Part shown: positions 23,822-48,606 of the stretch, piece after piece | How the letters are laid out: every line of letters starts with the position of its first letter | How positions within the stretch are numbered: position 1 is the stretch's first letter | Assembly (NCBI GenBank): GCA_964370965.1 | Contig: CAYJLW010000013.1 | Span: 5,696-69,695 of the forward strand | DNA length: 64,000 nt | DNA from: an uncultured Acidimicrobiia bacterium | Lineage (GTDB): Bacteria; Actinomycetota; Acidimicrobiia; UBA2766 | Direction of reading: 5' to 3' | Notes under the pieces: model-generated | Database searches by the model: none | Told to the model about the DNA's origin: nothing | What the model saw: the letters and a program-made list of their open reading frames with translations, nothing else | Program-made: the position numbers and the translations under genes

Positions 23822-25627
23822 TCAGATGGGCATCCGATAACCGAAGAACTCCTGGTCCTCGTTGTACCCGCCCTGTCCGGCACCGAGGCGGTCGAAGCTT
23901 TCCACGAGCTCGATGGCCTCGATCCACTTGACCTGCTTGAAGCCGAGCTCGACCTCGTCGCGCAGCCGGAGTGGCGCGCCGTAGGACTCCCCGAGGGGCT
24001 CGCCGTTCATCTCGTAGGCGAGGATGGTGAGCTCGTGGTACATGTTCTCGATCTTGTGGCAGTCGTAGTAGCGCCCGGTGCCGGGGGTCTCGGGGCCTTC
24101 GGCGAAGGAGTAGAAGACGACCCAGCGGGCGCCGGGGAGCGGCTCGGCGAGGGCGAGGACGTCCGACATCGCGACGCCGCCCCACTTGGCGATCCCGGAC
24201 CAGCCCTGGATGCAGTAGTGCTGGGTGACCTGTTCCCGCTTGGGCATGGCCAGCAACTCGGAGTAGGAGAGCCTGATCGGGTTGGCCACCAGGCCCTCGA
24301 TCTTGAGCGTGTAGTCGGCCCAGCCGCCGGCCCGGAGGCGCCTGTACTCCTCGGAGTCGGGAAGGTGCCCGTTGGGCCAGAAGAAGGCCGAGACGTCCTT
24401 CTCGGAATAGGTGGCCCTGGGGTCCCACCACTCCATCAGCCCCTTGATCCAGCCCACCGTCGCGGCGCCGACCTTCTGCACGGTCCGGGGCCTGCGGATG
24501 GTGAACGGGGACGCCGCCGCCCCCCAGGCGGCGCCGACGGGCAACCCCCCCCCGTAGACGGCCAGCGCCCACCCCGAGTCCGTGTTCGTGCCGAGCGTGA
24601 TGTGGTTGAGGTTCCCGACCAGGCCGGTGGCAAAGACCATCACGGTGTGCATGACGACGAAGAACACCATCCATGCCAGCACGCCGAAGTGGATCGTGCG
24701 GGCCACTTGACGATTCAGCAGTCCGGCGCCGAAGCCGAACTTCCCGGCGATCGAAGGCGCCTGCAGGAGCCCCGTGACGAATGCCAACGGCGCCGCGACG
24801 AAGATCGTCAGGAAGTACGCGAGGATCTGCAACCCGTTGAAGCGGGTGAACCCGGTGTTGGCCGGGAAGTCCAGCGACGCGTACTGGATCGCCGCGGACA
24901 GGGCGTTGGGAAACACGTCAAGTGACCGAGGGACCAGCCGTTCCCACTGGCCGCCGGCGAACAGCAACACGAAGAAGATCACGCCGTTGACGAGCCACAA
25001 CAGGTCGAAGCTGAAGTGCCACCAGCGGGCCAGGCCGACGGAGTGGCGAAACCCGGGGATACCCAGCCACCTCGGCAACGCCACCGAGTCGTCCTTTGCC
25101 GTCCACACCTGGGTCGCCTCGGCCGGGTCCTGGCGATCGGCCGGGACAGGGCCCCGGATGCGCAACCATTCACGGCCCGGTCTGCTCCCCGAGTCCAGGC
25201 TCAGGCGGGGGTGGTCGGCCAGGATCTGCAACCCGGCCCGGATGATGAACATCATGAACAACAGGTTGAAGAAGTGCTGCCAGCGCAGCCACCACGGGAA
25301 CCCTCCGTCGACCTCCGGCACGTAGGACCCCGACGTGCCCGGGTACCGGCGGATGAAGTCCCGCATCCAGTCGTAGTGACGCAGCTGCTGGGCCACGGCG
25401 ATCGACAGCACCAACCCCACCGCGACCAACGGGACCAACCACAACGAACTGAGCCACCGCCGACCCACCCGCACGAACGGCACCGTGGCCTTCTGGTCCT
25501 CCATGCCCCCCGCCCAGTCCTCCACCACGATGCGCCCGTCTAACACGCCCTGACGTTCGTGCGGATCGAGCAGCCCCTCCAGACGCGCGGCCTCGGTCTC
25601 CGGATCCGGCTCGGGTGTACCCGTCAT
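23822..25627 (-). CDS. molybdopterin-dependent oxidoreductase (sulfite-oxidase/YedY-like catalytic domain) fused to an N-terminal polytopic membrane domain
   Basis: The N-terminal 400 aa have at least 6 hydrophobic helices. The C-terminal domain has the Moco-oxidoreductase block HYCIQGWSGIAKWGGV...GAPLRL. Confidence 0.75.
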   Translation of the reverse strand: MTGTPEPDPETEAARLEGLLDPHERQGVLDGRIVVEDWAGGMEDQKATVPFVRVGRRWLSSLWLVPLVAVGLVLSIAVAQQLRHYDWMRDFIRRYPGTSGSYVPEVDGGFPWWLRWQHFFNLLFMMFIIRAGLQILADHPRLSLDSGSRPGREWLRIRGPVPADRQDPAEATQVWTAKDDSVALPRWLGIPGFRHSVGLARWWHFSFDLLWLVNGVIFFVLLFAGGQWERLVPRSLDVFPNALSAAIQYASLDFPANTGFTRFNGLQILAYFLTIFVAAPLAFVTGLLQAPSIAGKFGFGAGLLNRQVARTIHFGVLAWMVFFVVMHTVMVFATGLVGNLNHITLGTNTDSGWALAVYGGGLPVGAAWGAAASPFTIRRPRTVQKVGAATVGWIKGLMEWWDPRATYSEKDVSAFFWPNGHLPDSEEYRRLRAGGWADYTLKIEGLVANPIRLSYSELLAMPKREQVTQHYCIQGWSGIAKWGGVAMSDVLALAEPLPGARWVVFYSFAEGPETPGTGRYYDCHKIENMYHELTILAYEMNGEPLGESYGAPLRLRDEVELGFKQVKWIEAIELVESFDRLGAGQGGYNEDQEFFGYRMPI

Positions 25628-25840: not shown

Positions 25841-26704
25841 TCAGGCTGGGGACGGCGGCCCCTGCAAAAGAGCCGCCGGCATCGCCGGGGCCCGGCCCTC
25901 GGCGGCGGCCTGCATGCGCTCCACGGCAGCGGTGGCGAGCTCGGAATGGGGGAAGACCCAGAAGCGACCGGAGCGCACGGCGTCGAGGACCTGGGTCGCG
26001 ACGTCTCCGGGTTCGAGGCCGGCGGCGACGACCTGGCTGAGGGTTTCCCGCATCGCCTGGGTGGACCGCCCGTAGGTGGGAGCGGGGCCGAGACGGTCGG
26101 GCCAGTTGCGCTCGGCGTCGGGGAGCCCGGTGTTCACCCAGCTCGGGCACACCACCGAGACACGCACCGGTGACCCCATCAGGGCAAGGTCGTGGTGGAG
26201 GGACTCCGAGAGTCCCACGACGGCGTGCTTGCTCGCCACGTAGGGGCCGAACACCGGCGCGGCCACGACACCGAGGACCGAGGCCGTGTTCACGACGTGG
26301 CCCTCGCCCTGGGCGACGAGACGGGGCACGAAGGCGCTGATCCCGTGGACGACGCCGTAGAGGTTCACGCCCAGCACCCACTCCCAGACGGAAGCGGGGA
26401 CCTTCCAGCTCAGGCCGCCGCCGGCGACACCGGCGTTGTTGCAGAGCACGTGTACGGCGCCGTGGCGCTCGAAGGCGGCGTCCGCCAGCGCCTCCACGGC
26501 GGCGAGCGAGGCGACGTCGGTGGGGACGGCGAGGACGTCGGTCCCGCGGCGGCGGAGCTTTTCGGCGGCCACCGCCAGTTGGGCCTCTTCCACGTCGGCG
26601 AGCACGACCGCCATGCCCTCGGCGCCGAAGCGTTCCGCCAGGGCGTAGCCGATGCCGCTCGCCCCGCCGGTGACCACGGCGACCTTTCCGCTGAGCTCGT
26701 CCAT
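25841..26704 (-). CDS. SDR-family oxidoreductase
   Basis: VTGGASGIG, NNAG and S...YVASK motifs. ATG at 26704 behind GAGGAG. Confidence 0.85.
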   Translation of the reverse strand: MDELSGKVAVVTGGASGIGYALAERFGAEGMAVVLADVEEAQLAVAAEKLRRRGTDVLAVPTDVASLAAVEALADAAFERHGAVHVLCNNAGVAGGGLSWKVPASVWEWVLGVNLYGVVHGISAFVPRLVAQGEGHVVNTASVLGVVAAPVFGPYVASKHAVVGLSESLHHDLALMGSPVRVSVVCPSWVNTGLPDAERNWPDRLGPAPTYGRSTQAMRETLSQVVAAGLEPGDVATQVLDAVRSGRFWVFPHSELATAAVERMQAAAEGRAPAMPAALLQGPPSPA

Positions 26705-26756
26705 CGCTGACTCCTCGTGTGCGGGGGGCCTTGCGTTCCCCGCCGTTCCGTGTGAT

Positions 26757-26770
26757 AGTACTGCAATACT
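26757..26770. promoter_or_regulatory. imperfect palindrome AGTACTGCAATACT in an AT-rich divergent promoter region
   Basis: 12 of 14 positions are self-complementary around a TGCA core. Sits between the divergent SDR (25841-26704, minus) and the ADC-like/molybdoenzyme operon (plus). Local GC is far below the genome average. Confidence 0.4.
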
Positions 26771-26800
26771 GAACATGGATTCATTTTTCGGAGGCACCCC

Positions 26801-27523
26801 GTGACCGACATCTTCGCCATGCCACAGCCAGGGGAGATGATGTGGATCGGCGCCCGCATCCTCGTCGTCGACGTCGAGGTGCACGCCGAGGCGGCCCGCC
26901 GCCTCCTGCCCCCCACCCTGGAGCTGTCCGAGCCGGCGGCAGCCACCCTCTTCGTCGCCGAGTACCCCGAGACTGCCTTCGGCTCCGTCTACAACGAGGC
27001 CGCCGTCATCCTCCACGGCACCGACGGCAAGGGCGAGATCGGCCACTGCCCCTGGATGGTCGTGGACGAGGACACCGCCCTCATCCTCGGCCGGGAGACG
27101 CTCGGTTTCCCGAAGAAGCTCGCCGACATCAGCCTCCAGCTCGACGGCGACCGCGCCGTGGGCACCGTCGTGCGCCGCGGCGAGGAGGTCCTGCGCCTCG
27201 AGGCTCACCTGGGTGGCGTCGAGACCGACCCCGAGCCCATCCTGGCCCGCCGGGGCGTGAACCTCTTCGGCTCGATCATCGGGGGCATGCGCCTCATCGA
27301 GCTCCCTCCTCCCAACCAGGAGATACACGAATCCCGCAGCGCGGAGGCCAAGGTCGTCCTGGGGCGCACCGACCGCGACCCCCTGGGCGACCTCCGGGCC
27401 GGGACGGTCCGCGGGGCCCGCTACGTCCACCTGGACTTCGGCTCCGGCACCGACATGCCCAAGCTCCTGGGCAAGGTCGACTTCGCCTGGAGCCTCCCCC
27501 GGTTCCTCGCCAACGCCCTCTGA
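26801..27523 (+). CDS. acetoacetate decarboxylase (ADC) superfamily protein
   Basis: About 240 aa of a beta-rich protein. Blocks typical of ADC-like family proteins (AAVILHGTDGKGEIGHCPWMVVDED, RETLGFPKK). Called by pattern memory. Confidence 0.65.
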   Translation: MTDIFAMPQPGEMMWIGARILVVDVEVHAEAARRLLPPTLELSEPAAATLFVAEYPETAFGSVYNEAAVILHGTDGKGEIGHCPWMVVDEDTALILGRETLGFPKKLADISLQLDGDRAVGTVVRRGEEVLRLEAHLGGVETDPEPILARRGVNLFGSIIGGMRLIELPPPNQEIHESRSAEAKVVLGRTDRDPLGDLRAGTVRGARYVHLDFGSGTDMPKLLGKVDFAWSLPRFLANAL

Positions 27524-27562
27524 GCGCACCGAGCCACGCTCCCTTCCCCACGAGGCACTGAC

Positions 27563-30508
27563 GTGAGCGCACCAGACCCCTCCCGCCCCGGCGAAGCCCG
27601 CCACCGCTCCCGCTGGACATGGGACAGCGTGGCGTGGGGCAGCCACTGCGTGGACTGCTACCCGGGCAACTGCAGCTACCGCCTGTACGTGCGCGACGGC
27701 AAGGTCGTGCGCGAGGAGGTCGCCGGCGCGGGCGAGCCCTCCTCGGGCTCCCTCCCTGACGGCCTCCCCCTGGGATGCAACAAGGGGGCGGCCTGGAGCG
27801 CCCAGATCGAGGGCCCCGACCGCGTACGCTGGCCGATGCGCCGGGTGGGAGAGCGGGGCTCGGGCGCGTGGGAACGCCTGAGCTGGGACGACGCCCTCGA
27901 CGCCGTCGCCGACGTCCTCGTCGACACGATCGAGGCCGACGGACCCGGCGCCATCCTCCGGGAGGGGACACCCCAGGTCGGCGTCGGTCTCGCCCCGGAT
28001 CGTTTCGTACACCTCCTCGGCGGCACCGTCACTGACCTGAACGGGGCGATCAACGACTTCGCCAACGGCCTGCACATCACGTTCGGGAAGTCCAACCCGG
28101 TCTACTCGCCCCGCAGCGTCTTCGAAGCCGACGTCCTCCTCCTCTGGCACATCAACCCCGCCTACACGCTGATTCCCGTCTACCACTGGATGACCGAGGC
28201 CCGCTACCGGGGCGCCGAGGTCGTCCTCTTCTCCCCCGACGTGAACCCCACCCACAGCCACGTCGACTACGCGGTGCCCGTACGCTGGGGCGCCGACGCC
28301 GCGGTCGTCCTCGCCATGTGCCAGGTGGTCGTCGCCGAAGGCCTCGTCGACGAAGGCTTCGTCGCGACCCAGACCGACCTCTCGCTGCTCGTGCGCACCG
28401 ACACGGAGCGGTTCCTGCGCGAGAGCGACGTCGTCGCCGGCGGCCACGAGGAGCAGTTCTTCCACCTCGACCCCGGGCGGGGCGTCGTCCCCGCCGACCG
28501 CGCCAACCTCCTGTGCGACTACGAACCCGCTCTCCGGGGCCGGACGACGGTCACCCTCGCCGACGGCGGCGAGGTCGTCGTGGCGCCCCTGTTCGAGCGG
28601 GTGGCGTCCCTCCTCGCCGACTACACGCCCGAGGCCGCCGCCGAGGTGGCCGGCACGCACCCGGAGACGATCCGCACCGTCGCCCGCAAGGTGGCCGCCG
28701 GACGCACGTATGCCGCCATCGGAGGGGGCGCCGAGAAGCTCTACCACGGCGACCTCTTCCAGCGCTCCGCCCACCTCCTCCTCGGCCTCACCGGGAACTG
28801 GGGTCGCCCCGGTGCCGGGACGACGTCGTGGTCGGTGCCTCATGGCGACGGCTCGCTCCTCACGTCCGCGAAACGGACCCCCGGCCCCGAGGGCGCCGAA
28901 GTCGTCCTCGCCCTCCTCGAGAGCCTCGCCGCCGCCGTGAAGGCGTCGGACCCCACGATGTCCGACGAGCTCGCCGCCTTCGCCCTGCACCGGGGACCCC
29001 TCGCCGACAAGGCCATGGTGCCCCCGTTCTTCTTCTGGTATTGGCACGCCGGGTTCGCGGAGCGGCTCAACAACACCGCCTGGGGCGACCCCACGATGAA
29101 ACGCACCTATGACGAGTACGTCCAGGAGGCCCTCGACGAGGGCTGGTGGGCCGGCTTCGACCGCCCCGGCCCCGACGACACCCCCCGGGTCCTGATCGAG
29201 TGTGGAGGCAACATCCTGCGCCGCACCCGGGGCGGTGGTCGGCTCCTCCTCGAACACCTCTGGCCGAAGCTCGAGCTGATCGTCACCATCGACTTCCGCA
29301 TGTCCCTCACCGCCCTGCACTCCGACGTCGTCCTGCCCGCCGCCCAGCCCTACGAGAAGGTGGGCACGCACATGCCCTCCATGGAACTCACCCTCTCGGA
29401 CAGCGCCGTGGAACCCGTCGACGACGCGCTCCCCGAGTGGGAGATCTTCGCCGGTCTCTGCCGGGCCGTCGAGCGCCGCGCCGCCGCGCGGGGCCTCGAG
29501 CACTTCCGCCACTCGGGCGGCGCCCGGCGCCGCTACGACAAGCTCTGGGCGGCCTTCACCCTTAAAGGCGTCCTACGCACGACCGAGCACGTCGTGGACG
29601 AGACCATCCGGGACGCCGCCTACGCCGGGATCCTTCCCGAGGGCACGACGCTGGAGTCCCTGCGGGAGTCCGGGCGCATGAACTTCACCGGCTGGGGCGT
29701 GACCGCCTTCGGCCAGAGCCAGGCAGCGGACTGGCAGGACGACGTCCGGACCGTCGTCCCCTGGAGCAACCACGTCGAGAAGGGCGACCCCTACCCCACC
29801 CTCACCCGCCGGGCGCAGTTCCTCGTCGAGCACCCCTGGTTCGTGGAAGCGGGCGAGGACCTCCCCTGCCACAAGGAGCCCCCGCAGATGGGCGGCCCCG
29901 GCCGCTACTGGATGACCACCGGGCACAACCGCTGGTCGATCCACGCCATGAACATGGCGAACCCGTGGCTCATCCAGACCCACCGGGGCGAGCCCCACGT
30001 CGTCGTCCACCCCGAGGACGCCGCCCGCGAAGGCATCGCCGACCACCAGCCGGTGCGGGTCTCCAACGAGGCGGGCTCCTTCGTCGTGCGGGCGAAGCTC
30101 TCCCCCACCCAGCGCCCCGGCGGCGTCACCGTCTACTCGGGCTGGGACGGCCACCAGTTCCCGGGCTGGAACCCGCCCAGCGACGTCGAGCCCAGCCTCG
30201 TCAAGCACCTCGGACTCGCCGCCGGCTACGGCCACCTCCGCTACGGACCCATGGAGTGGCAGCCCGTCCCCTGCGACCGCCCCGTCGCCGTCGACATCGA
30301 GGCCGTCGTGGAGGGGGTGGGGGGGGGGGTGGCGCCCCCCCCCCCCCCCCGGGCCGGGGGGCCCGCGGCCCCCCCCCCCCCCCCCCCCCGCTCGCCCGGG
30401 GGCGCCGGCGGCACCACACCACCACACGACCGGGATGGCGGTGGCGCCGGAGACGAAGGTCCTTGCTCACGAGCGGCCAACCGTGTTCCACCGCCGTGGC
30501 ATAGATGA
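27563..30508 (+). CDS. molybdopterin bis-MGD oxidoreductase (DMSO-reductase superfamily) with N-terminal Cys-cluster motif; 3' end unresolved
   Basis: The N-terminal HCVDCYPGNCSYRLYVRDGKV...LGCNKG is an FeS-type Cys motif with atypical spacing. Size (about 920 aa) and the C-terminal molybdopterin-dinucleotide-binding domain fit the family. There is no twin-arginine signal. The reading frame continues through G/C homopolymer tracts at 30313-30400 as poly-Gly/Pro. The truncated paralog at 7015-7440 suggests the true stop lies near 30315. Confidence 0.75.
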   Translation: MSAPDPSRPGEARHRSRWTWDSVAWGSHCVDCYPGNCSYRLYVRDGKVVREEVAGAGEPSSGSLPDGLPLGCNKGAAWSAQIEGPDRVRWPMRRVGERGSGAWERLSWDDALDAVADVLVDTIEADGPGAILREGTPQVGVGLAPDRFVHLLGGTVTDLNGAINDFANGLHITFGKSNPVYSPRSVFEADVLLLWHINPAYTLIPVYHWMTEARYRGAEVVLFSPDVNPTHSHVDYAVPVRWGADAAVVLAMCQVVVAEGLVDEGFVATQTDLSLLVRTDTERFLRESDVVAGGHEEQFFHLDPGRGVVPADRANLLCDYEPALRGRTTVTLADGGEVVVAPLFERVASLLADYTPEAAAEVAGTHPETIRTVARKVAAGRTYAAIGGGAEKLYHGDLFQRSAHLLLGLTGNWGRPGAGTTSWSVPHGDGSLLTSAKRTPGPEGAEVVLALLESLAAAVKASDPTMSDELAAFALHRGPLADKAMVPPFFFWYWHAGFAERLNNTAWGDPTMKRTYDEYVQEALDEGWWAGFDRPGPDDTPRVLIECGGNILRRTRGGGRLLLEHLWPKLELIVTIDFRMSLTALHSDVVLPAAQPYEKVGTHMPSMELTLSDSAVEPVDDALPEWEIFAGLCRAVERRAAARGLEHFRHSGGARRRYDKLWAAFTLKGVLRTTEHVVDETIRDAAYAGILPEGTTLESLRESGRMNFTGWGVTAFGQSQAADWQDDVRTVVPWSNHVEKGDPYPTLTRRAQFLVEHPWFVEAGEDLPCHKEPPQMGGPGRYWMTTGHNRWSIHAMNMANPWLIQTHRGEPHVVVHPEDAAREGIADHQPVRVSNEAGSFVVRAKLSPTQRPGGVTVYSGWDGHQFPGWNPPSDVEPSLVKHLGLAAGYGHLRYGPMEWQPVPCDRPVAVDIEAVVEGVGGGVAPPPPPRAGGPAAPPPPPPRSPGGAGGTTPPHDRDGGGAGDEGPCSRAANRVPPPWHR
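30313..30400. repeat. G/C homopolymer tract cluster (G11, C16, C24 runs) at convergent gene ends
   Basis: Directly visible: gggggtgggggggggggtggcg, then C16, then gggccgggggg, then C about 24. Both flanking genes lack proper stop codons here. Confidence 0.8.
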
Positions 30509-30803
30509 GCCGGTCCGCCGGGTCGCCGGGGAACGAAGCCGGCAGGGCCGCGGCGATGTCCGCCACGGCCGGCGAGACCGCCACAGTGCGGATCTGCACC
30601 GCCAGGGACTCCAGCCAGGAGCGCACCGGAACCGACACGCGGATCCTGTCGTGGCGCGCCAACCACGCCAACTCGAACCACGTGATCCCACTCACAGCCA
30701 GCTCGTCGGCGCCGGCGACCGTCTCGGTGGCGGTCCGACTCAACCGCTCCGGCTCAGCAGACCACCACTGCACCACGTGCGTGTCGAGCAGGACGGTCGT
30801 CAC
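30440..30803 (-). CDS. vapC: PIN-domain toxin VapC (C-terminus runs into the homopolymer tract; end uncertain)
   Basis: GTG at 30803 forms a GTGA overlap with the antitoxin stop. VTTVLLDTHVVQWW gives the PIN motif with its N-terminal Asp. ...IYATAVEHGWPLVSKDLRLRR is the usual C-terminal block. Confidence 0.6.
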
Positions 30804-31027
30804 TGGAGTTCCCAATCGGCGCCGGTCGAGAAGAGGTCGTCCTCCTCCGCTGCGCTCACGGCCACTCCGGAGAGCCGTCCTCTGAGACCCGCGGGCCCTC
30901 CTGCCGGGACGAGGCGGGCGACCGGGCGTCCCCTCTTGGTGATGAGCACCTCCTCGCCGGCGGCCACCTCGTCGAGCAGGGCGAGGATGCGGGCCTTCAC
31001 CTCGGTGGCGGTCATCTGACGGGTCAT
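30800..31027 (-). CDS. Phd/YefM-family antitoxin
   Basis: MTATEVKARILALLDEVAAGEEVLITKRGRPVARLVP is the Phd/YefM signature. Confidence 0.75.
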   Translation of the reverse strand: MTRQMTATEVKARILALLDEVAAGEEVLITKRGRPVARLVPAGGPAGLRGRLSGVAVSAAEEDDLFSTGADWELQ

Positions 31028-31078
31028 GTGGTCATGTTAGTGGCCGCCACACATTCCAAGCCGCCGGACCGGCTGCGC

Positions 31079-31510
31079 CTACTCGTCGAGGGGGTGGGCC
31101 CAGCGCAGACCGGGGAACCGGGCGAAGCCCCGGTCGGCCGACACCCAGGTGCTGCCCTGCTCGACCGCGATCGCCGCCAGGTAGGCGTCCGGGACGACGT
31201 TGCCCTTCGCGCCGACCCGCCGGCAGAGGTCCGAGAAGATGCCCCAGTGCCGGTCGCCCGGCGCCACGGTCGTCGTGGCCGGGGAGGCACGGAGCGCATC
31301 CACGAAGTCCAGGGCGACACCGAGGGGGGTGGGCTCACGGAAGACGCGAGGATGGGTCACGACCCGAAGGAAGCCACTCGCCACGACGTCACTGAGCCCC
31401 AGCGGTTCGGGAGAGCGACGAGCCGCATCGAGCCACCCGCGGTAGGCCTCGTGGCCGAGCGACTCCGGCCGGTGGGCGAACACGAGGACGTTGACGTCAA
31501 CGCAACGCAT
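31079..31510 (-). CDS. vapC: PIN-domain toxin VapC
   Basis: MRCVDVNVLV (Asp5), VPDAYLAAIAV and WVSADRGF are PIN catalytic acidic positions. 143 aa. Confidence 0.8.
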   Translation of the reverse strand: MRCVDVNVLVFAHRPESLGHEAYRGWLDAARRSPEPLGLSDVVASGFLRVVTHPRVFREPTPLGVALDFVDALRASPATTTVAPGDRHWGIFSDLCRRVGAKGNVVPDAYLAAIAVEQGSTWVSADRGFARFPGLRWAHPLDE

Positions 31511-31754
31511 CGCCAGGCGTGCTCTCGTCCATCACGTCTGCGAGGGCGGCGTTGCTCGTGAGGTCGACGCCGGCCAGGACGCCGCTCCCCCCGAAGACGG
31601 GCAGGGGCGCCACCCCTTGTTCCGGTGCCCGCCGGGGCCGCAGGGCCTCCCGGACGGCGTCTTCGATGACCTCGCCGACGGTGCGACCGGTCTGGGCGGC
31701 GCGGGCCTTCACCCGCCGGTAGAGCTGGTCCTCGATCCGGATCGTGGTCCGCAT
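31497..31754 (-). CDS. vapB: ribbon-helix-helix (CopG/VapB-type) antitoxin
   Basis: MRTTIRIEDQLYRRVKARAAQTGRTVGEVIEDAVREAL is the RHH fold signature. Overlaps the vapC start by 14 nt. Confidence 0.7.
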   Translation of the reverse strand: MRTTIRIEDQLYRRVKARAAQTGRTVGEVIEDAVREALRPRRAPEQGVAPLPVFGGSGVLAGVDLTSNAALADVMDESTPGDALR

Positions 31755-31772
31755 GGTGCATCTTAGCACCAT
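31753..31772. promoter_or_regulatory. inverted repeat ATGGTGC-N6-GCACCAT overlapping the vapB start codon (likely autoregulatory operator)
   Basis: Perfect 7-bp arms, seen directly in the sequence. Confidence 0.45.
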
Positions 31773-32146
31773 ACGGAAGCACCAAGATGCCGGGGCGGAG
31801 GCCCCCCTCCCCGCGACCCCCGCTCGCGCACGGTCGCTGGTCCCGGCCTGGGGCGCCTGTCGCCGACGAGTAGCCTCCGGGGAGTGAGACGCTCGAAGGG
31901 CTTTTGTCTCACCGAGGGGGGCGGTGAACTCGCAGGCGAGAGGTCCGAGATCCGCCCCCCGCCCGCAATGTCCTGCTCAGCGGGGACATGACGCACCCGT
32001 CACAGACCATTGCGCTCATGCTGCAAACTCTTGTATCGTTCGTCAGGAAAGCGAGGATTTCTCCTCGTTACCGCACGTAACTCAGAATCAAGAGACAGCG
32101 CAACGCCAACCGGGCCGTTCCGGCCGACCACCACGGGGGGTTAACC

Positions 32147-33847
32147 ATGGAGGAGCGCTTCGACTTCGTCATCGTCGGGGGCGGCCACAACGGCACCACG
32201 ATGGCGGCCTACCTGGCCAAGTCAGGGGCGTCGGTCTGCGTCGTGGAGGCGAGACCGGAGTGCGCCGGGGGCCAGGAGAACACCGAGCCCGTCCCCGGCT
32301 TCCGCATCGACCCGCACGCCACGTACCTGTACGGCGGCGCCGCCCCCGGCTTCGAGCAACTCGAGCTCGCCAAGTACGGGTTCCGTTTCGTCCCCTACCG
32401 CTCCATGTTCGGCTTCGTCACCTCCGACGGCGCCGCCGTCAACTCCGGGAGCCGCTGGGACCAGAACATCGGCATGGAGTCCCTCACCGCCGTCGCCGGC
32501 GCCGAGGTCGCCCAGCGCCGTTTCATGATGGACAACATGCCCATCGAGGTCATGCGCGACTTCCTGCGGGCCATGTTCTGGACGGCGCCCTACCCCGCCG
32601 AGATGGAGTTCGAGGCCATCGACCTCCCCTGGGCGCAGTACCTGAAGAAGGCCCTCAACGGCGCCTTCTCGGAACGCTGGCTCGAGATGTCCCTCATCGA
32701 GTTCATGGACGAGGCCTACGGCTACGAACCCATGAAGGTCGCCCAGGCGATGGCCTCCTGGTACTCCGGCGCCCACCCCACCTGGGAAGGCCAGGCGCTC
32801 CCCTCACTGGGGGGCGCCATGCTCGCCGGCTACGCGTCCGGCTCCCCGCGGGGCGGCATGCACGCCTACGCCCACGCGATCATCCGCTGCGCGCTCGCCC
32901 ACGGCGCCCGCATCATCACGAACTCCGAGGTCGAGGAGATCGTCGTCCAGAACGGCCGCGCCGTGGGCGTCCGCCTGGGCGAGGACTCCGCCTTCCCCGA
33001 GAAGGTCATCTGGGCGGACAAGGGCGTCATCTCCGGCGTCGACGTCAACCAGACGTTCCTGCGCCTCATCGGCAAGAGGCACGTCGACGCCGGCTTCTAC
33101 CAGCGGGTGAGCGACGTGAACTTCAAGGGCGGGAGCCTCTACGTGCTCTCCGTCGCCTGCCGGGAGCTCCCCCGCTACCACGGCAACCCCGACTACTTCC
33201 GCGACGAGGTCTACCCCTCCTGCGTGGTCTGGCCCTCGGACTCCTACGAGAACCTCTACGCCCAGACCGAGGACGTCTACAGCCGCAAGGTCGTGCCGGA
33301 GCTCACCAAGGAGCACCTCACGATGATGGTCATCACCCACGACCCCTACGACCCCACGCGCACACCCGAAGGCCACCACCTCCTCTCCCCCATCTACCTC
33401 CAGATCCCCCCCACGCACTACGACGTCGCGGGGCCCGAGGGCCTGAACAAGGTCAAGGACCAGGTCACCAAGGCCGTCCTCGACCTCCTGGAAGAGGGCG
33501 CCCCGAACATGACCTCGGACAACATCGAGCACATCTGGGTGAACACCCCGTACGACTCGGAGTTCCGCAACGCCGGCATGGTGGCGGGGAACTGGTACGG
33601 CGCCCGCCAGTCCGCCGACCAGTGGTTCCACACCCGACCGCTCCCGGAGCTCTCCCGCTACCGGACGCCCATCGAGAGCCTCTACCTGTGCAACCACACC
33701 TCCCACCCCGGTGGCCTCTGCCTCATGGCGGTGCCGTACAACCTCATGCACATCCTCATCGAGGACGACCTCGTGGCGCCCGGCTCGTGGTGGTACCCGT
33801 CGCCGTGGCACGTGACCGAAAACGGCAAGCAGCTCCAGGAGGCGTGA
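32147..33847 (+). CDS. CrtI/phytoene-desaturase-family FAD-dependent oxidoreductase (paralog B1)
   Basis: FDFVIVGGGHNGT...C-terminal CNHTSHPGGLCLMAVPYN. Preceded by a leader of about 390 nt that is relatively AT-rich. Confidence 0.85.
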   Translation: MEERFDFVIVGGGHNGTTMAAYLAKSGASVCVVEARPECAGGQENTEPVPGFRIDPHATYLYGGAAPGFEQLELAKYGFRFVPYRSMFGFVTSDGAAVNSGSRWDQNIGMESLTAVAGAEVAQRRFMMDNMPIEVMRDFLRAMFWTAPYPAEMEFEAIDLPWAQYLKKALNGAFSERWLEMSLIEFMDEAYGYEPMKVAQAMASWYSGAHPTWEGQALPSLGGAMLAGYASGSPRGGMHAYAHAIIRCALAHGARIITNSEVEEIVVQNGRAVGVRLGEDSAFPEKVIWADKGVISGVDVNQTFLRLIGKRHVDAGFYQRVSDVNFKGGSLYVLSVACRELPRYHGNPDYFRDEVYPSCVVWPSDSYENLYAQTEDVYSRKVVPELTKEHLTMMVITHDPYDPTRTPEGHHLLSPIYLQIPPTHYDVAGPEGLNKVKDQVTKAVLDLLEEGAPNMTSDNIEHIWVNTPYDSEFRNAGMVAGNWYGARQSADQWFHTRPLPELSRYRTPIESLYLCNHTSHPGGLCLMAVPYNLMHILIEDDLVAPGSWWYPSPWHVTENGKQLQEA

Positions 33848-33851
33848 GACC

Positions 33852-35567
33852 GTGACCCGTCAGACCTACGAAGTGCAGGTTCCTCCCGAAGAGCGCATCC
33901 TCGACGAGTTCCCGGAGCGCTCCGAGTTCGACGTAGTCGTCGTGGGTGGGGGCCCGAACGGCCTCATGACCGCCGCCTACCTCGCCCGTGCCGGACTGCG
34001 CACCGTCGTCGTGGAGCGCCGCCACGAGATCGGCGGCGGCCTCGCCACGGAAGAGGTCCTCTTCCCCGGCTACTACACCAACGTCCACGCCGTCTATCAC
34101 ATGATGACGGACTTCATGCCCCTGTTCCGGGACTTCGACTTCGCCAAGCACGGCCTCACGTTCGTGAAGCCCAACGCCCAGACGGCGGCGGTCTTCCCCG
34201 ACGGCAAGAGCCTGCTCCTCTGCAACCAGCTCGAGGACACCAAGGACTCCATCGCGAAGTTCTCCCGCCAGGACGCCATCAACTTCGGCAAGGTCATGCG
34301 CACCTGGCGCAAGGTCGTCGACGAAGTCGTGGGGCCCGCCACCTACGTGCCGCCCGTGGCCCCGATAGACATGATCGAGGCGTTCGAGCGCACCGAAACC
34401 GGCCGTGAGACGCTGCGCCTCACGGAGATGTCCCCCGTCGAGATCATCGACGAGATCTTCACCGACGACCGCGTGAAGATGACGATGCTGTACGCCGCCT
34501 GCATGTGGGGCCTGGACCCGACCGACACCGGCCTCGGGTTCATGGTGCCCCTGCTCATCGACCGCACGATGAACAAGGCGATCGCCTATGGCGGCTCCCA
34601 CAAGCTCGCCGGAGCCCTCTCCCGCGAGATCCACAAGGCCGGCGGCCTCGTCGTCGACAACGCCGAGGTCACCCGGATCATCGTCGAGGGCGGCGCCGCC
34701 GTCGGCGTGGAGACGTTCGACGGGCGCGAGATCCGGGCGAAGGCCGTGGTCTCCAGCCTCGACCCGCAGACCAACTTCCTCCGCCTCCTCGAGCGCGACC
34801 AGGTGCCCGCCGACCTCGTCACCCGCGCCGAGGGTTGGGAGTGGGACAAGTGGTCCTTCTTCACGGTCTCCCTCGCCATGACCGAGGCGCCCAAGTACGT
34901 CACCGACGACCCCTGGGTGAACAAGGCGTTCATGACGATCCTGGGCTTCGACTCCACCGAGGCTCTCCTGGCGCACTGGGACGGCGTCCTGAACAACCGC
35001 CTCGGCCCCGGTCTCGGCGGTCACGCCACCACCGAGACCCTCTACGACCCCACCCTGTCGCGGGTGCAGAGCGGGTCGCCGCACCCGTGGGCCGAGGAAC
35101 CGCCGGCAGCCAAGGGGCCCCGCCACCACGTGGCGTTCCTGCAGATGCACGCCCCCTACGACCTCGAGGGGGGCTGGAAGCAGCGTCACGACGCCCTCGT
35201 CGAGGAGACCATCGAGACCTGGGGGCGCTACGCCCCGAACGTCAAGGCCGAGAACATCCTCATCCGCTCCGGCGAGTCGCCCCTCGACATCGAGCGGCGC
35301 ATGCCGAACATGGTGCGGGGTTCCATCAAGCACGGCGACTACAACTCGCTGCAGATGGGCGTGTTCCGTCCCGACGACTCCTGCGTGGGCGGCCGCAGCC
35401 CGATCCAGGGCCTCTACCTCTGCGGCGCCTCCAACTACCCGGGCGGCCTCGTCATCGGGGGGTCCGGCTACATCGCCGCCAACACCGTGGCCGAGGACCT
35501 CGGCGTCGAGAAGTGGTGGACCCCGCCCCGGCACGTGGCCCGCTTCGAGGAGACGTACATGTCATGA
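33852..35567 (+). CDS. CrtI/phytoene-desaturase-family FAD-dependent oxidoreductase (paralog B2)
   Basis: FDVVVVGGGPNGL...ERRHEIGGG; C-terminal CGASNYPGGLVIGGSGYIAAN. GTG start 4 nt after the B1 stop. Confidence 0.85.
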   Translation: MTRQTYEVQVPPEERILDEFPERSEFDVVVVGGGPNGLMTAAYLARAGLRTVVVERRHEIGGGLATEEVLFPGYYTNVHAVYHMMTDFMPLFRDFDFAKHGLTFVKPNAQTAAVFPDGKSLLLCNQLEDTKDSIAKFSRQDAINFGKVMRTWRKVVDEVVGPATYVPPVAPIDMIEAFERTETGRETLRLTEMSPVEIIDEIFTDDRVKMTMLYAACMWGLDPTDTGLGFMVPLLIDRTMNKAIAYGGSHKLAGALSREIHKAGGLVVDNAEVTRIIVEGGAAVGVETFDGREIRAKAVVSSLDPQTNFLRLLERDQVPADLVTRAEGWEWDKWSFFTVSLAMTEAPKYVTDDPWVNKAFMTILGFDSTEALLAHWDGVLNNRLGPGLGGHATTETLYDPTLSRVQSGSPHPWAEEPPAAKGPRHHVAFLQMHAPYDLEGGWKQRHDALVEETIETWGRYAPNVKAENILIRSGESPLDIERRMPNMVRGSIKHGDYNSLQMGVFRPDDSCVGGRSPIQGLYLCGASNYPGGLVIGGSGYIAANTVAEDLGVEKWWTPPRHVARFEETYMS

Positions 35568-36076
35568 GGCTCAAGTCCCGCGGCCTGGGCCGCAAAGAGC
35601 TCGTGATGGACTTCCGCGAATACGACGTCGTCGCCGACGGCGACGAGATCGTGATCATGGGCACCATCCACGAGCCCGTCCACTGGGATTTCTCGATCCG
35701 GGTCTGCGAGGACGACCTCGCCGGGATCATCAACGTGGCCCTGAAGAAGTCGACGCGGCGTTTCGCCCTGCGGGCGATCTTCCGGCGCGACAAGCGCCAC
35801 CACTGGAACACCGACCGCGCCCGGCGAGTCGTCCTCGCCCGCGAGCACAGCCTGGACCTCGCCCGCAAGGAGGCGAAGGCCGCGCTCCCCGAGGGCGTCG
35901 AGGCCGACGCTGCCGAGGCCGCGATCGAGAACGACAAGGGCGTCCGCAAAGCGAGGAAGAGAGCCGAGAAGGCCCAGCGGAAGTACTCTGCCCAGGAGGA
36001 GACCGCCGCGACGGTCGTCGCCCCGGCCCCCGGTGACGCCGAGAGCCTCTCGGACGTCGGTTCGGGAGCCGCGTGA
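35566..36076 (+). CDS. hypothetical protein (compact N-terminal domain plus Lys/Arg/Ala/Glu-rich tail)
   Basis: ATG forms an ATGA overlap with the B2 stop. Codon usage is consistent with coding. No family recognised. Confidence 0.45.
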
Positions 36077-36271
36077 CGGTGTCGGGCCGTCGTCCCGGCC
36101 CCGCCCAGAACCGGCCCCGCTCCCGGGCGGGCCAGGTGAGCGTGGTGGCGGTGAAGTTGTCGGTGCCCGGGGCGAATCCCTGCGTCTGATACCCGTCGGG
36201 ATCCCCCCCAAAACGCCCCGGGCTCCGGCTTCGGGGGGGGAGTTCCGCTCCCCCCCCGGACTCTCACGCCG

Positions 36272-36933
36272 CTACTCGGCGTCCTGGCGTCTCAGACGGA
36301 GGACGCAGCCTGCGCGCCTCGGGTCCCGCACTTCGAGGTCGACGACGGTGACGCCTCCGCCGAGGGCCTCGAGGATGCCCTCGGCCAGGCCGCGGTGGAG
36401 AGCGCAGACAGTCTGCGGGTCCTGTGTGGCGGCGCTGGAGAACGCGCAGCGCTCCAAGACCAGCTCCACCGTGGCGTCCTCACACACCCGGCGACTGGGG
36501 GCGAAACCCTGCCGGGCGATCTCGCGTTCCAGGACGTCCACCGCGTCCCCTGCGGGCCCCCCGGCCCCCGTCGGGCCCGCCGCCCCGGCAGAGCGACCAA
36601 CCCTGCGGGGGTCCTCTCCCGTGCGGATGATCTCGAGCAGCCAGCCGGCGAGGCGTTCGTAGGCGTCCGGCCCGCCCCACTGCGCTGCGAGGTCCGGAAC
36701 AGGCCGGTAGCGCAGGGGAGGCCGGCCCGGCCGGCCGCCGGACTCGGTCTCCTCGACCAGGAGGTCCGCGGCCACGAGACAGGCCAGGTGCTGGCGCACG
36801 GCGTTGTGGTTGAGGCCCACGAGCTCGGTGAGGGCGGCGACCCCGACCGGCTCGGGCGACTCGAGAATGTGACGGTAGATGAGGTGACGCGTGGGATTGC
36901 CGAGCGCCCGGGCCTGCTCCTGCAGCGTGCTCA
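36272..36933 (-). CDS. ArsR-family HTH transcriptional regulator with extended C-terminal domain
   Basis: GTG at 36933. ALGNPTRHLIYRHI...GLNHNAVRQHL is a winged-helix HTH of the ArsR type. An additional C-terminal domain of about 100 aa contains Cys residues. Confidence 0.65.
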
Positions 36934-38160
36934 CGGCGCCTCCCCCGCCGGCACCCCGCGAGCGGGCACCCGCTCCCCCCGGCCGGCCAAGAGAAGGCCG
37001 AGCCGGACTCCCGTGTCTGCCACCCACAGCCCCGTCACGACCCACGCCGCCACGCCGGCGCCCGCGGCCCATGCCACAGCAGCCACGTTCGCCGCCGCGA
37101 GGCCCGGCCAGCTCCGGGTGAGGCGGAATCCGGCCCCCAGCCGCTCGTGGCCCCCGCCCCGCAGCACGGGCCCCAGGTAGGCGAGGGCGCCCGCCAGGAT
37201 CTGGCCGTAGCCCCCGACGAGGAGACATCCCAAGATCCTCGGGTCCGCTACCGGTCGCCCCGCCCCTGCGCGGGCCCCCGCCCACACGACAGCGCCCGCC
37301 CACCACGCCGTCCCGGCGAGGATCTGCACCAAGCGGGGTCCTGCCCAGCGGATCTGCTTCCCGCCCAGGCGGGGGAGGATCCCCGCCGTGGCGACCACGC
37401 CGGCGCCATAGGCGAACAGCCCGGCCGCCGCGAGGCCGCCGTTCCCGGCCAGGGCGCCCCCGGCCGCCAGGGCGCCGCCGGCGGCGAGGGTGCCGAGGAG
37501 AGCGCCCCGGTTCCGGGGAGTGGCCCGGGGACTGGGCTTCACGCGCGCCTCCGTAGCCGTGAAGAACGGCAGCGTGCCCGCCACCACAAGGCCCACGAGG
37601 CCGAGCAGGTTGAGGATGAGGTGGCCGTCACGGACGGCGTCGGTGCCCCGGACCGCCCCTGTCGCCACGAGGATCCCGACCGCGCAACCCGCGACCCCGA
37701 AGAGGACCGCTGTCTCATAGAACAGGGCCGACGGGCGGAAGCGGTCCGCCACGCCGTTCGCCACCGTCCAGCGCACCATTCCCGCCCAGAGGACGAGAGC
37801 GCCGACGACCAGGGCCCCCGAGACACCCGCGAGCGCCGGCAAGCGGAGCTCCCGGGCGAGGAGGAGACCGCCGGCGCCGCCGGCGAGCAGCCAGCGCTGC
37901 GTGGCCGCCAGGGCGCCGGGGGGAGCGGGGCCCGCCGACCAGGTGACCGCAAAGAGGAGGCCGGCACCGGATATCGCCAGCAGGAGCGCCCCCACGCCAA
38001 AGACGTGCACCGGTGCCCAGGGACCGGTGCGATGAGGGACCGCGGCAACGACGGGAGTGGCCGCCACGAAGGCGACGGCGACGAGCAGGGTGGCGCGGGC
38101 CTGACCCTGGGCGCGCACGACGCGACCGGCGTCGGCGCCATCCCGTCGGTCGCCGGCCAC
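36931..38160 (-). CDS. polytopic integral membrane protein, unknown function
   Basis: 409 aa, about 10 hydrophobic segments. Stop overlaps the regulator start. Confidence 0.5.
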   Translation of the reverse strand: MAGDRRDGADAGRVVRAQGQARATLLVAVAFVAATPVVAAVPHRTGPWAPVHVFGVGALLLAISGAGLLFAVTWSAGPAPPGALAATQRWLLAGGAGGLLLARELRLPALAGVSGALVVGALVLWAGMVRWTVANGVADRFRPSALFYETAVLFGVAGCAVGILVATGAVRGTDAVRDGHLILNLLGLVGLVVAGTLPFFTATEARVKPSPRATPRNRGALLGTLAAGGALAAGGALAGNGGLAAAGLFAYGAGVVATAGILPRLGGKQIRWAGPRLVQILAGTAWWAGAVVWAGARAGAGRPVADPRILGCLLVGGYGQILAGALAYLGPVLRGGGHERLGAGFRLTRSWPGLAAANVAAVAWAAGAGVAAWVVTGLWVADTGVRLGLLLAGRGERVPARGVPAGEAP

Positions 38161-38168
38161 AGCCGACC

Positions 38169-38489
38169 CTACCGGCGGAATCCGAGCGTGGCGGCGGCCT
38201 CTTCCTCCATGCGCTCGGGGGTCCAGGGTGGGTCCCAGACGACGTTCATCTCGACGCCCCCGGGCGCGGCGTCACCGAGGGACTGCGTGACCACGGCCTT
38301 GGCCTGCTCGGGCAGGCTGTCGGCGATCGGACACCCCGGCGTGGTCAGGGTCATGTCGATCACGACCTTGTCGTCTTCGGCGCGAATGTCGTAGACGAGA
38401 CCCAGAGCGACGACGTCGAGGCCGAGCTCCGGGTCGTAGACGAGGCGGAGCGCCTCTCGGGCGCGCTCGACGAGGTCGGGCGTGGTGCT
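38169..38489 (-). CDS. DUF59/MIP18-family FeS-assembly protein (SufT-like)
   Basis: LVYDPELGLDVVALGLVYDI...MTLTTPGCPIADSL is the hallmark block. ATG at 38489 behind AGGAGGAACG. Confidence 0.75.
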   Translation of the reverse strand, partial: STTPDLVERAREALRLVYDPELGLDVVALGLVYDIRAEDDKVVIDMTLTTPGCPIADSLPEQAKAVVTQSLGDAAPGGVEMNVVWDPPWTPERMEEEAAATLGFRR

Positions 38490-39871
38490 CATCGTTCCTC
38501 CTGGGCGGTCACGGGTGTCGCAAGGGCGGGTATGTCGAGGACTGTGGCGCTGCGGCCTGCCCGGCGGGGGCCGAATCCCAGGTTGGAGAGGGCGAGGACC
38601 CCTGTGAGCGAGAGCAGGAGGCCGCCCGCCGCAAACGCCCAGGAGGTCGCCGCGGCCGCCCCCGCGAGCAGGAACCCCACTCCGAGCGTCATGGACGCGA
38701 GTGTGAGGCGGGCCACCCGGCCGTCGAAGAGATCGGCGAAGAGGAGGGGCTTTCCGTCGGGACGCATGAGGAAGCCCCTTTCCCGGAGCTTCGTCCAAGA
38801 GATGAACGGGACGATCTTGTGGGCGTGGCCGACGACGGCGAGGCCGAGCCAGCCGAAGAGGCCCAGCACCTCCACGGTGAGGAGGCGCTGGCGGGCGGTG
38901 ACGGTGACGGGGGCGAGGGCGCCCACGACCCCTGCCGCCACGGCGACGAGCAGGGAGAGGGCCGAGGCGAAGATGAAGGCGTGGAGGAGCTCCAGGGGCC
39001 GGCGGCGGTTGCGCACGTACGCCGCGAGGGCGCCGAGATGACATGCCAGACCCGCGGCCACCCCCAGGCCACCGAGGACGCAGAGCCACCGCCACTGCAA
39101 GAGGAGTCCGCCCACCAACAGGGTGACGCCGGTAGCGGCCAGCCAGATCCCCCACCGCGCCGGGCTCCTCTCGACATGGGCGAGAAGGAACATCGGCCAG
39201 AGCTTCTCGGCCACGGCCATGTAGGTGATCCCCAGCCAGCCGAGGAGGCCGAGGTGGGCGTGGGCGAGGATGCGCACCGGGAGCAGGGAGAACCAGCCGG
39301 TGTCGAGGTCGAGGGCGTAGACGACGCCGAAGCCGGCAGTTGTCACGAGGAACGCGAGGGAGAGGCGGATCCCGACGATCGGGGTTCCCTTGCCCCGGCC
39401 CGCCAGAGGTCGCGAGAGGTTCCAGACCATGAGGAGGATCGCCGTCCAGGCCAGCGCCCCGGCCGTGGCCGCCAGCCAGAGGACACCCCACTCCAGCGAG
39501 CCGGCGAGAACCCAGACGGACGGGACGAAGAGCGCCGCCGAGACCCCGGCGACACGGACCGACCGCAGGGGTGCCATGCCGATGACGGGTGAGAACTGGT
39601 GGAGTGCTCCCAGCACGGAGGTCGTGAGGAAGGCGAGCATGCTCAGGTGGAAGACGCCCGCCACCCGCATCGACGTGGGTGCGGTCACGGCCCGGGAGGC
39701 GACCTCGGCGAGGCCGATCCCCCCCACGACGAGGCCCACAGCGCCCGCGGCCAGGAATGTGAGGGGGACGCGGGCGGGGGGGATCGCAGGGGACGCGCCC
39801 GGGCCGGCCGGCACCCCGGGGGGTGAGGGCGTACCGGCCGGCGGGGCGAGGGACGGATCGGGTTCGCTCAT
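38489..39871 (-). CDS. polytopic integral membrane protein, unknown function
   Basis: 460 aa, more than 10 hydrophobic helices. Translationally coupled on both sides. Confidence 0.5.
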   Translation of the reverse strand: MSEPDPSLAPPAGTPSPPGVPAGPGASPAIPPARVPLTFLAAGAVGLVVGGIGLAEVASRAVTAPTSMRVAGVFHLSMLAFLTTSVLGALHQFSPVIGMAPLRSVRVAGVSAALFVPSVWVLAGSLEWGVLWLAATAGALAWTAILLMVWNLSRPLAGRGKGTPIVGIRLSLAFLVTTAGFGVVYALDLDTGWFSLLPVRILAHAHLGLLGWLGITYMAVAEKLWPMFLLAHVERSPARWGIWLAATGVTLLVGGLLLQWRWLCVLGGLGVAAGLACHLGALAAYVRNRRRPLELLHAFIFASALSLLVAVAAGVVGALAPVTVTARQRLLTVEVLGLFGWLGLAVVGHAHKIVPFISWTKLRERGFLMRPDGKPLLFADLFDGRVARLTLASMTLGVGFLLAGAAAATSWAFAAGGLLLSLTGVLALSNLGFGPRRAGRSATVLDIPALATPVTAQEER

Positions 39872-40224
39872 CCGGGGGTCAGGGCCAGGAAGCGCCGCGT
39901 GCGGCGGGCGTCTTGCAGGCCTCGGGTCACCTCCTCCAGGGTGCGGCCCAGAGGCACGTGCTCGAGCAGCCTGCCGAGGGCCTCGTCGTCGACTTCGTCA
40001 GAGGCTACTTCTCGTGCGGCGGCCTGGAATCGGGCGGCGAAGCCGTGGCCGCCGATCTCCCCGATGGTGACCTCGACGCGCTCGCCGTCGGCCACGCCGG
40101 CGAGGCGTTCGTCACCGAGGCAGATGAGGCGGTCACCCTGGGCGGCGTAGCGGGCACTGGCACTGTGGCCGTTGACCCGCAGCGACACGGTGTAGCGGCC
40201 CTTCACTTCACTCGGCAACGCCAT
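39868..40224 (-). CDS. hypothetical protein (first gene of a three-gene operon)
   Basis: 118 aa. Its stop overlaps the downstream membrane-protein start. A perfect palindrome lies 20-45 bp upstream. Confidence 0.45.
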   Translation of the reverse strand: MALPSEVKGRYTVSLRVNGHSASARYAAQGDRLICLGDERLAGVADGERVEVTIGEIGGHGFAARFQAAAREVASDEVDDEALGRLLEHVPLGRTLEEVTRGLQDARRTRRFLALTPG

Positions 40225-46506: not shown

Positions 46507-46543
46507 AAGGATTCCCCGTGTCGCCGTCCAGCCCGAGCCTGCC

Positions 46544-47650: not shown

Positions 47651-47662
47651 GTTGCCCGTGGT

Positions 47663-48331: not shown

Positions 48332-48567
48332 GGAATCGTGTCCCTCCCGCGCGTGCGCGTTCCCCAGAATCTACGGCGATGAGACCACGTCGTGGCGGCA
48401 GTCCTCCCGGCGCATGAACCCGGCGATCCCGTTCATGACGTAGTGGTGTGTGGGCTCAGGCGGGGACGGCACGACACGGCGGTCGACGAAGAACGTGTTC
48501 GCTCCCGGGCCGCCGCCCGCCTTCTCATCGGCACCTCGGGCCGGACTGAACCCGGGCGGCTCAACCG

Positions 48568-48588
48568 ACATGGCAATCCTGTATTCGG
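48568..48588. promoter_or_regulatory. AT-rich repeat CTGTATTCGGTTGTATTACAG (TGTATT direct repeat within a CTGTA/TACAG inverted repeat) upstream of the BrnTA-like module
   Basis: Seen directly in the sequence. Lies in the low-GC leader 20 bp upstream of the toxin-gene start. Confidence 0.35.
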
Positions 48589-48606
48589 TTGTATTACAGT
48601 GGCAAG

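Follow-up and report, generated by a model that had tools for sequence, protein, structure and literature searches.

The 64-kb stretch of DNA analysed here (the window; 71% guanine plus cytosine, GC), from a contig of an uncultured Acidimicrobiia bacterium, contains several sites at which runs of G and runs of C face each other as the arms of apparent hairpins. A first-pass annotation of the sequence had proposed that these sites form a genome-specific family of GC-clamp hairpins that serve as terminators or recombination sites or, alternatively, that they reflect a systematic sequencing error. Our analysis indicates that the G-run/C-run "hairpins" are very probably not a class of genetic element: the largest is in all likelihood a short-read artefact in place of an ordinary GC-rich stem-loop, another is probably a real terminator-like hairpin, and a third is an inverted repeat at chance level. 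The runs are irreproducible between assemblies of the same population, a clean palindrome lies under the longest tract (site A), the differences between assemblies have a transversion-rich spectrum, and two hot spots of error lie at the two strongest hairpins of the region compared. The runs that had been quoted are all present in the window (C7, G8 and C8 at site C; G11, C16, G6 and C21 at site A). The four sites under study are as follows (nt, nucleotides; bp, base pairs).

30313–30389, 77 nt: site A, a corrupted tract with G11, C16, G6 and C21 within 30319–30389
31916–31924 and 31952–31960: site B, an inverted repeat, GGGGGGCGG and CCGCCCCCC, with a 27-nt loop, in the divergent region from vapB (minus strand) to crtI-like gene 1 (plus strand)
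36232–36258: site C, hairpin CGGGGGGGGAG-TTCCG-CTCCCCCCCCG, an 11-bp perfect stem with a 5-nt loop between the convergent hypothetical and ArsR/HTH_20-like genes
4195–4221: hairpin GTCAGGGGGCC-GCTCG-GGCCCCCTGAC, 11 bp, between two minus-strand genes, containing a G5/C5 stem

Independent assemblies of the same population

The nearest species-representative genomes are Acidimicrobiia metagenome-assembled genomes with about 80% protein identity and a different gene order, owing to which a comparison of intergenic regions with them was impossible. More than 20 independent SPAdes assemblies of short reads exist, all from one essentially clonal population whose proteins are listed solely from ENA, NCBI and Logan sources. 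In an exact-protein look-up, different ENA samples yielded at least 24 metaSPAdes-style contigs that encode crtI-like protein 2. The comparison assemblies with stated coverage are L041 (32x), L042 and L043 (7x), L044 (46x) and L046 (12x).

Over the 19.5 kb from 44531 to 64000 the window is 100% identical to a 46x contig. Four mismatches separate it from a 12x contig over 1–21272, and over 23809–45567 it departs from L041 at 24523–24549 and 30313–30423 only. Outside 44531–64000, the differences between the window and the other assemblies are confined to 8359–8360, 8784, 8822, 24523–24549 and 30313–30423.

The window reads A at 8784 and again at 8822, where two other assemblies read C and G. This is the opposite direction to the error mode described below, and these may be the sole real strain differences observed in about 60 kb. 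The remaining runs of eight, a G8 and a C8 at 14154–14161 and 53626–53633, are identical in other assemblies (L047, L050) and appear real. The G8 falls in the part of a short-chain dehydrogenase gene that encodes the N-terminus, with a minus-strand reading of Thr-Pro-Pro-Glu.

A clean palindrome under the corrupted tract at site A

Site A lies where two convergent genes meet.

27563–30508, plus strand: molybdopterin oxidoreductase (Mo-oxidoreductase) open reading frame (ORF), 981 amino acids (aa) in the window, with Pfam PF00384 and PF01568
30411–30803, minus strand: PIN toxin gene
30390–30423: window-only substitutions beside site A (30395 T>C, 30411 T>G and 30423 G>C), at which L041 and L043 agree against the window

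In L041 the tract is replaced by a perfect 15-bp palindrome, GGGGGTCGAGGGGCG-GTAG-CGCCCCTCGACCCCC (34 nt, L041 6505–6538), whose loop contains the TAG stop codon of the Mo-oxidoreductase gene and whose predicted fold has a free energy of −44.8 kcal/mol (z −5.1). In the window the left arm is no longer or shorter than in the clean sequence but carries the changes C>G, A>G, C>G, T>G and A>T, a pattern of substitution and not of slippage; in the right arm the changes are towards C. L042 and L043 contain other versions of G/C junk at this position, for example G22-C17-G13...C16. The only version that recurs is free of homopolymers, its longest run being G5.

The oxidoreductase protein cluster comprises 15 distinct sequences from about 18 contigs, with no mismatch over the first 905 aa. 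Thirteen of the 15 end in differing Gly/Pro-rich tails, among which all three downstream reading frames are represented; the remaining two have the clean length of 922 aa. This clean form occurs in four contigs, three of them identical and one with a single A>C. By contrast, of the neighbouring proteins the ArsR-like one is identical in 23 contigs and the hypothetical one in 24. Homologues of the Mo-oxidoreductase align only up to residue 912–915 and end about 10 aa past the VDI motif, as does the clean form. The last ~59 Gly/Pro-rich residues of the 981-aa product are a false extension through junk, and the true protein has 922 aa. The 981-aa form is on record in the cluster table from an NCBI source, on a 76,432-bp contig, though an exact look-up of this product in the contig index gave no match.

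The gene on the opposite strand is affected as well. The 30411 T>G substitution abolishes the TGA stop codon of the PIN gene, and the window ORF continues to 30201. In L041 the PIN gene is called at 6560–6952, equivalent to 30411–30803 of the window, and in the clean sequence its stop codon lies 21 nt from the hairpin. The tract 30313–30389 is thus a short-read sequencing and assembly artefact that replaces an ordinary GC-rich stem-loop and falsely extends both convergent genes.

By coordinate arithmetic, a 46x contig of 41.8 kb (ERZ13693047 NODE_2008) should end at about 30338, at site A; if so, the hairpin would not only corrupt assemblies but also interrupt them.

Smaller products of the same error mode in coding sequence

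Two further stretches of the window, both inside genes, differ from the other assemblies in the same manner.

8358–8364 (site 8358–8397): a false G7, true sequence GTCGGGG, at the foot of an 11-bp hairpin (8365–8397) inside a crtI-like gene
24520–24553: corrupted C6 and C9 runs with seven substitutions, mostly A>C, inside an Oxidored_molyb/cytochrome b gene

L047 and L049 read TC at 8359–8360. The surrounding sequence at 8.3 kb carries 14 clustered substitutions towards G/C in L048 and 20 in L049, and the latter passes into poly-G junk with a duplication. At 24520–24553 L041 reads CCCACAAGGCGGCGACGACGGCCATCCACACCCC, with CCCACAAGG and CCATCCACACCCC at the places of the C6 and C9 of the window. 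L042 and L043 have long G/C junk here, interrupted by an N gap in L042, and the gene is broken in both. The G7 and the C6/C9 pair are smaller products of the error mode seen at site A. The suspicion of a systematic sequencing error was well founded for 30313–30389, 8358–8364 and 24520–24553, and it extends to site C as a hot spot in other assemblies.

A probably genuine hairpin between convergent genes at site C

Site C separates the hypothetical gene from the regulator gene and is preceded by a further C-run.

35564–36076, plus strand: hypothetical protein gene, its stop codon ending at 36076
36272–36934, minus strand: ArsR/HTH_20-like regulator gene, stop codon 36272–36274
36203–36209: C7 run upstream of the hairpin, read as C8 in one assembly, with A/T>G/C substitutions in its flank in two others (L044 and L046 versus the window, L041 and L043)

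The arms of the site C hairpin contain a G8 (36233–36240) and a C8 (36250–36257). The G8/C8 stem reported within 36195–36262 is indeed there, and it is longer than had been described, with 11 bp and a 5-nt loop. Four of the seven covering sequences (the window, L041, L044 and L046) read the stem-loop identically and a fifth, L043, differs by a single T>C in the loop, so that the G8 and C8 are probably genuine and correctly read in the window. The site is also an error hot spot in other assemblies. L042 has poly-G/poly-C there, followed by a 10-N gap, a 62-nt segment with no match elsewhere among the sequences compared, and then a corrupted second copy of the flank. L044 and L046 carry T>G and A>C changes beside the hairpin, and one ArsR variant terminates in PPPPP in place of LRRQD.

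The clean site A hairpin and the site C hairpin each lie within about 20 nt of the stop codons of convergent genes (the stop codon of the ArsR-like gene is 13 nt from the site C stem). They resemble Rho-independent terminators in this position and in their perfect GC-rich stems of 15 and 11 bp with loops of 4–5 nt. They differ from them in that no T-run follows either stem on either strand. A scan for consensus terminators was silent at both sites; its three hits over 26000–40000 equal the shuffle expectation, and none falls at a hairpin site. With no T-run and a silent scan, the two stems are not intrinsic terminators as classically defined. Among the Rho-independent terminators of high-GC Actinobacteria, a type that has no U-tract is debated. 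Judged from position and stability, the two hairpins are most likely bidirectional, U-tract-less transcription terminators or stabilisers of RNA 3′ ends. What remains of the terminator role proposed at the outset concerns these two convergent gene ends, which hold the two most stable local stem-loops in 21.7 kb, neither of them with a U-tract.

No part of the window matched Rfam at gathering thresholds, so that the hairpins matched no known RNA family. In L004 and L005, which carry distant homologues of the hypothetical gene, a corresponding hairpin was not found in the downstream regions, an uninformative result. It would be a larger claim that, in this Acidimicrobiia lineage, convergent gene pairs are separated by very strong stem-loops with a G-rich 5′ arm that act as U-tract-less bidirectional terminators (for example G8AG/CTC8 at 36232–36258), the homopolymer arms of site C being genuine. 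We regard this as unlikely.

Site B and the hairpin at 4195–4221

Site B is flanked by two genes that start on either side of it.

31497–31754, minus strand: VapB gene, start at 31754
32147–33847, plus strand: crtI-like flavoprotein 1 gene, start at 32147

The inverted repeat that had been placed at 31921–31971 exists, with slightly different coordinates (31916–31924 and 31952–31960). Its sequence shows no differences among the window, L041, L042 and L043. The fold z-scores are −0.44 on the plus strand, no better than shuffled sequences, and −2.1 on the minus strand. Site B adjoins two divergent gene starts and no gene ends there, so that it cannot terminate a gene. It is real sequence but a chance-level inverted repeat, situated between two divergent promoters.

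The G5/C5 stem noted at 4197–4219 was recovered as part of the 11-bp hairpin at 4195–4221. This hairpin is identical in the window, L047, L048 and L049, has fold z-scores of −3.05 and −2.65, and is genuine.

Substitution spectrum and its relation to hairpins

The spectrum of between-assembly differences was counted against the majority base at each position, leaving out those positions of site A at which the clean L041 stood in the minority against three corrupted copies. Among the remaining 82 events T>G (19), A>C (18), C>G (15) and G>C (8) predominate. Transversions make up 89% of the differences, and transitions number nine (11%). Real strain variation would be transition-rich. The observed spectrum fits a loss of signal in two-colour Illumina sequencing combined with errors triggered by inverted repeats.

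Each of these components has been described. T>G and A>C changes are an artefact reported for two-colour NovaSeq chemistry (PMC13218037); in two-colour imaging G is unlabelled and is overcalled into poly-G stretches (PMC8002175); and inverted repeats together with GGC motifs set off consecutive miscalls, loss of coverage and assembly gaps (Nakamura et al. 2011, PMC3141275). The sites in the window share with these sequence-specific and two-colour errors (PMC3141275, PMC8002175, PMC13218037) runs of consecutive miscalls that lie in part at GC-rich inverted repeats, gaps and breaks in the assemblies, a spectrum dominated by T>G, A>C and changes towards G or C, and the irreproducibility between assemblies. 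They differ in that the errors are fixed here in consensus contigs, one of them at NCBI, with homopolymers of up to 21–22 nt, whereas the papers describe read-level miscalls and low-frequency false variants.

When 50-nt DNA folds were ranked over a clean 21.7-kb reference (mean −8.4 kcal/mol, standard deviation 3.1), the true site A sequence came first at −23.7 kcal/mol and site C second at −21.7 kcal/mol. Signs of misassembly accompany the junk versions, in the form of 10-N runs, a duplication and the 62-nt segment unmatched among the sequences compared.

We propose the following course of events. The organism would possess ordinary, mutually unrelated GC-rich stem-loops, two of them, with 15-bp and 11-bp stems, at convergent gene ends. 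Short-read sequencing by synthesis would fail at or near such hairpins, and bases would be miscalled towards G, appearing as C when they derive from reads of the opposite strand (chiefly T>G, A>C, C>G and G>C). An assembler that joins the degraded reads over the resulting coverage gap may then produce G and C runs of arbitrary length that mimic complementary homopolymer arms.

Several observations weigh against this explanation or limit it. At the 24.5-kb hot spot the stem is weak, with no more than 7 bp, and the strongest hairpin of the first 21 kb (at about 10462) is free of errors in the assemblies seen; hairpins are thus neither the sole nor a sufficient trigger. Site A is clean in just four contigs out of about 18, and a 46x contig bears T>G and A>C errors beside site C, so that coverage alone does not predict a clean result. 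A rule by which G-runs lie on the left flank and C-runs on the right fits the outermost runs of site A and fails at 24.5 kb and in the ArsR variant P0018. The G8 and C8 of site C could be slightly inflated by an error common to all assemblies. Finally, we infer both the use of a two-colour Illumina platform and the mechanism at the level of reads.

Two simpler formulations were set aside. Coverage as the sole cause was dropped, as the 46x contig errs beside site C and, by the coordinate arithmetic given above, ends at site A; the strict G-left/C-right flank rule was only partially obeyed.

G-runs and C-runs against their background

The clean site A, site B, site C and the 4195 hairpin share only 7- to 9-mers in pairwise comparison (expectation value E ≥ 0.14). 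Further copies of their sequences were not found in the 64-kb window, barring one 16-nt match at 56170–56185 (E 0.001). The scan that had been suggested for the pattern G(6+)-N(5–30)-C(6+) gave, as GGGGGGN{5,30}CCCCCC over the window, ten overlapping matches at two loci only (2.26 ± 2.42 expected), a recurrence not above chance. After replacement of the corrupted stretches, three loci have opposite runs of G6+ and C6+ within 3–40 nt of each other, against an expectation of 1.3–3.7; the probability of three or more such loci is 0.13–0.73, varying with the null model. Pairs of G-runs and C-runs are not enriched after cleaning. Perfect stems of at least 9 bp with loops of 3–12 nt number about 15, and 8.4 ± 3.0 are expected per 64 kb under a Markov model.

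Single runs are frequent in this genome. The window contains 1.25–1.3 G or C runs of at least 6 nt per kb versus 0.22 per kb in its closest relatives (L001 and L002) at equal GC content. CCC accounts for 70% of proline codons in the window versus 39–44% in the relatives, and this preference contributes to the high background of C-runs; the excess of runs is at least partly due to it. Four G6 or C6–7 runs inside the two crtI-like genes encode Gly-Gly or Pro-Pro. At three of the four, the same residue pair is found in all three orthologues (73–80% identical), and the run at 32809–32814 corresponds to Gly-Gly in one of the three. The high background of G/C runs may also mean that this genome is unusually prone to the error mode described above.

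Alternative explanations

Three other explanations were weighed against an artefact at ordinary stem-loops. The first is that the hairpins really vary in structure, through insertions, heterogeneity of strains or recombination at cruciform-prone palindromes, and that this variation was badly assembled, base-calling errors not being the cause. The 62-nt segment in L042 is non-homopolymeric and unmatched among the sequences compared, and the computed end of the 46x NODE_2008 at site A would agree with a structural break. That insert is, however, flanked by poly-G/C and a 10-N scaffold gap and followed by a corrupted copy of the flank, which is typical of a chimeric join through all-G and all-C k-mers. 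A second clean allele recurs at no site, and the neighbouring substitutions fit the spectrum of T>G, A>C and C>G changes. Structural variation is therefore very unlikely to account for the differences.

The second explanation is the one put forward in the first-pass annotation, a real, genome-encoded family of homopolymer-arm hairpins that act as terminators or recombination sites. Site C and the clean site A do lie at convergent gene ends with very stable folds, the left arms of the clean site A, site C and 4195 hairpins are all G-rich on the plus strand, and G/C runs of at least 6 nt are about five times more frequent than in the closest relatives of the same GC content. Yet the longest member of the supposed family, the 30313–30400 tract, is missing from the reproducible assembly. 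The sites have no sequence in common and differ in loop length and flank, and their count is at the level of chance once cleaned. Site B is away from any gene end and U-tracts are absent. CCC codon bias accounts for at least part of the excess of runs, and the runs inside genes are Gly-Gly or Pro-Pro codons. A comparison with repetitive extragenic palindromic (REP) sequences and miniature inverted-repeat transposable elements (MITEs) leads the same way: like these, the hairpins of the window are short, GC-rich and intergenic, but nothing is common to the different sites, and the 64 kb hold no additional copies. We consider such a family highly improbable.

Hardly more credible is the third explanation, in which 30313–30389 and the L042 sequence at site C would be hypermutable, slippage-prone contingency loci that vary between samples or cells: long G/C runs do undergo slipped-strand mispairing and the length of site A differs in nearly every assembly, but the variants consist of many substitutions that create runs from mixed sequence and not of unit-length insertions or deletions, the sole recurring version has no run longer than G5, the same process also strikes coding regions (at 8.3 kb and 24.5 kb), where genes are broken and N gaps and a duplication appear, the remaining genome is 100% identical between samples, and 89% of the changes are transversions. 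Known phase-variable homopolymer tracts share with the window a run length that varies by sample. They differ from it in that the variation here is chaotic and proceeds by substitution rather than by unit slippage, that the reproducible allele is free of a tract, and that the tracts are located at the 3′ ends of genes and inside conserved coding sequence.

The artefacts matter chiefly for the use of the sequence. The deposited contig calls for a quality warning, with ~59 false residues on the Mo-oxidoreductase, the PIN stop codon removed and two further coding regions altered. Poly-G/poly-C artefacts of this kind may be misread as phase-variable tracts, as G-quadruplex or i-motif sites, as Pro/Gly-rich tails of proteins or as new families of repeats, and a comparison of independent assemblies of one population quickly exposes them. 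The biological import is small; what is real here amounts to ordinary GC-rich hairpins at the ends of genes.

Genomic context and further observations

The remaining genes in the neighbourhood of sites A to C are the following.

26801–27523, plus strand: acetoacetate decarboxylase-like gene
30800–31027, minus strand: Phd antitoxin gene
31079–31510, minus strand: VapC gene
33852–35567, plus strand: crtI-like flavoprotein 2 gene

The minus-strand region 30411–31754, between the oxidoreductase gene and the crtI-like operon, consists of tandem toxin-antitoxin pairs, PIN with Phd/YefM and VapC (PIN) with a ribbon-helix-helix VapB. In the relative L002 a vapBC pair is placed after the crtI-like genes, unlike in the window.

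An inverted repeat, CGAGGA-TTTC-TCCTCG, lies at 32040–32075 in locally AT-richer sequence, some 85 nt before crtI-like gene 1 begins. Similar TCCTCG/CGAGGA repeats are present at about 1370–1420 of L001, upstream of the orthologue of crtI-like gene 1. The repeat may be a conserved operator of the crtI-like operon.

Between 4001 and 8000, where a DNA methylase gene is located together with several small ORFs, the GC content falls to 62–65%. This segment may be an island gained by horizontal transfer; the 4195–4221 hairpin lies at its edge.

A genuine repeated intergenic element with inverted G-run/C-run termini, AACCCCCCCTACCCCCCCTTGTCAGGGGGG ... ~50 nt ... CCCCCCTGACAAGGGGGGGTAGGGGGGGTT, was observed in unrelated genomes labelled "MAG: bacterium" (56–63% GC, two of them at chromosome level), at the following positions.

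L024: 9041–9150, 13691–13800 and 18886–18996
L027: 3981–4008, 4401–4428, 5301–5328, 5513–5540 and 9245–9282
L028: 19119–19226
L029: 9729–9837 and 12451–12549

This element has no Rfam family and gives two to six core matches per locus of about 21 kb. It looks MITE- or REP-like, a family of the kind that had been imagined for the window, but outside the organism from which the window derives.

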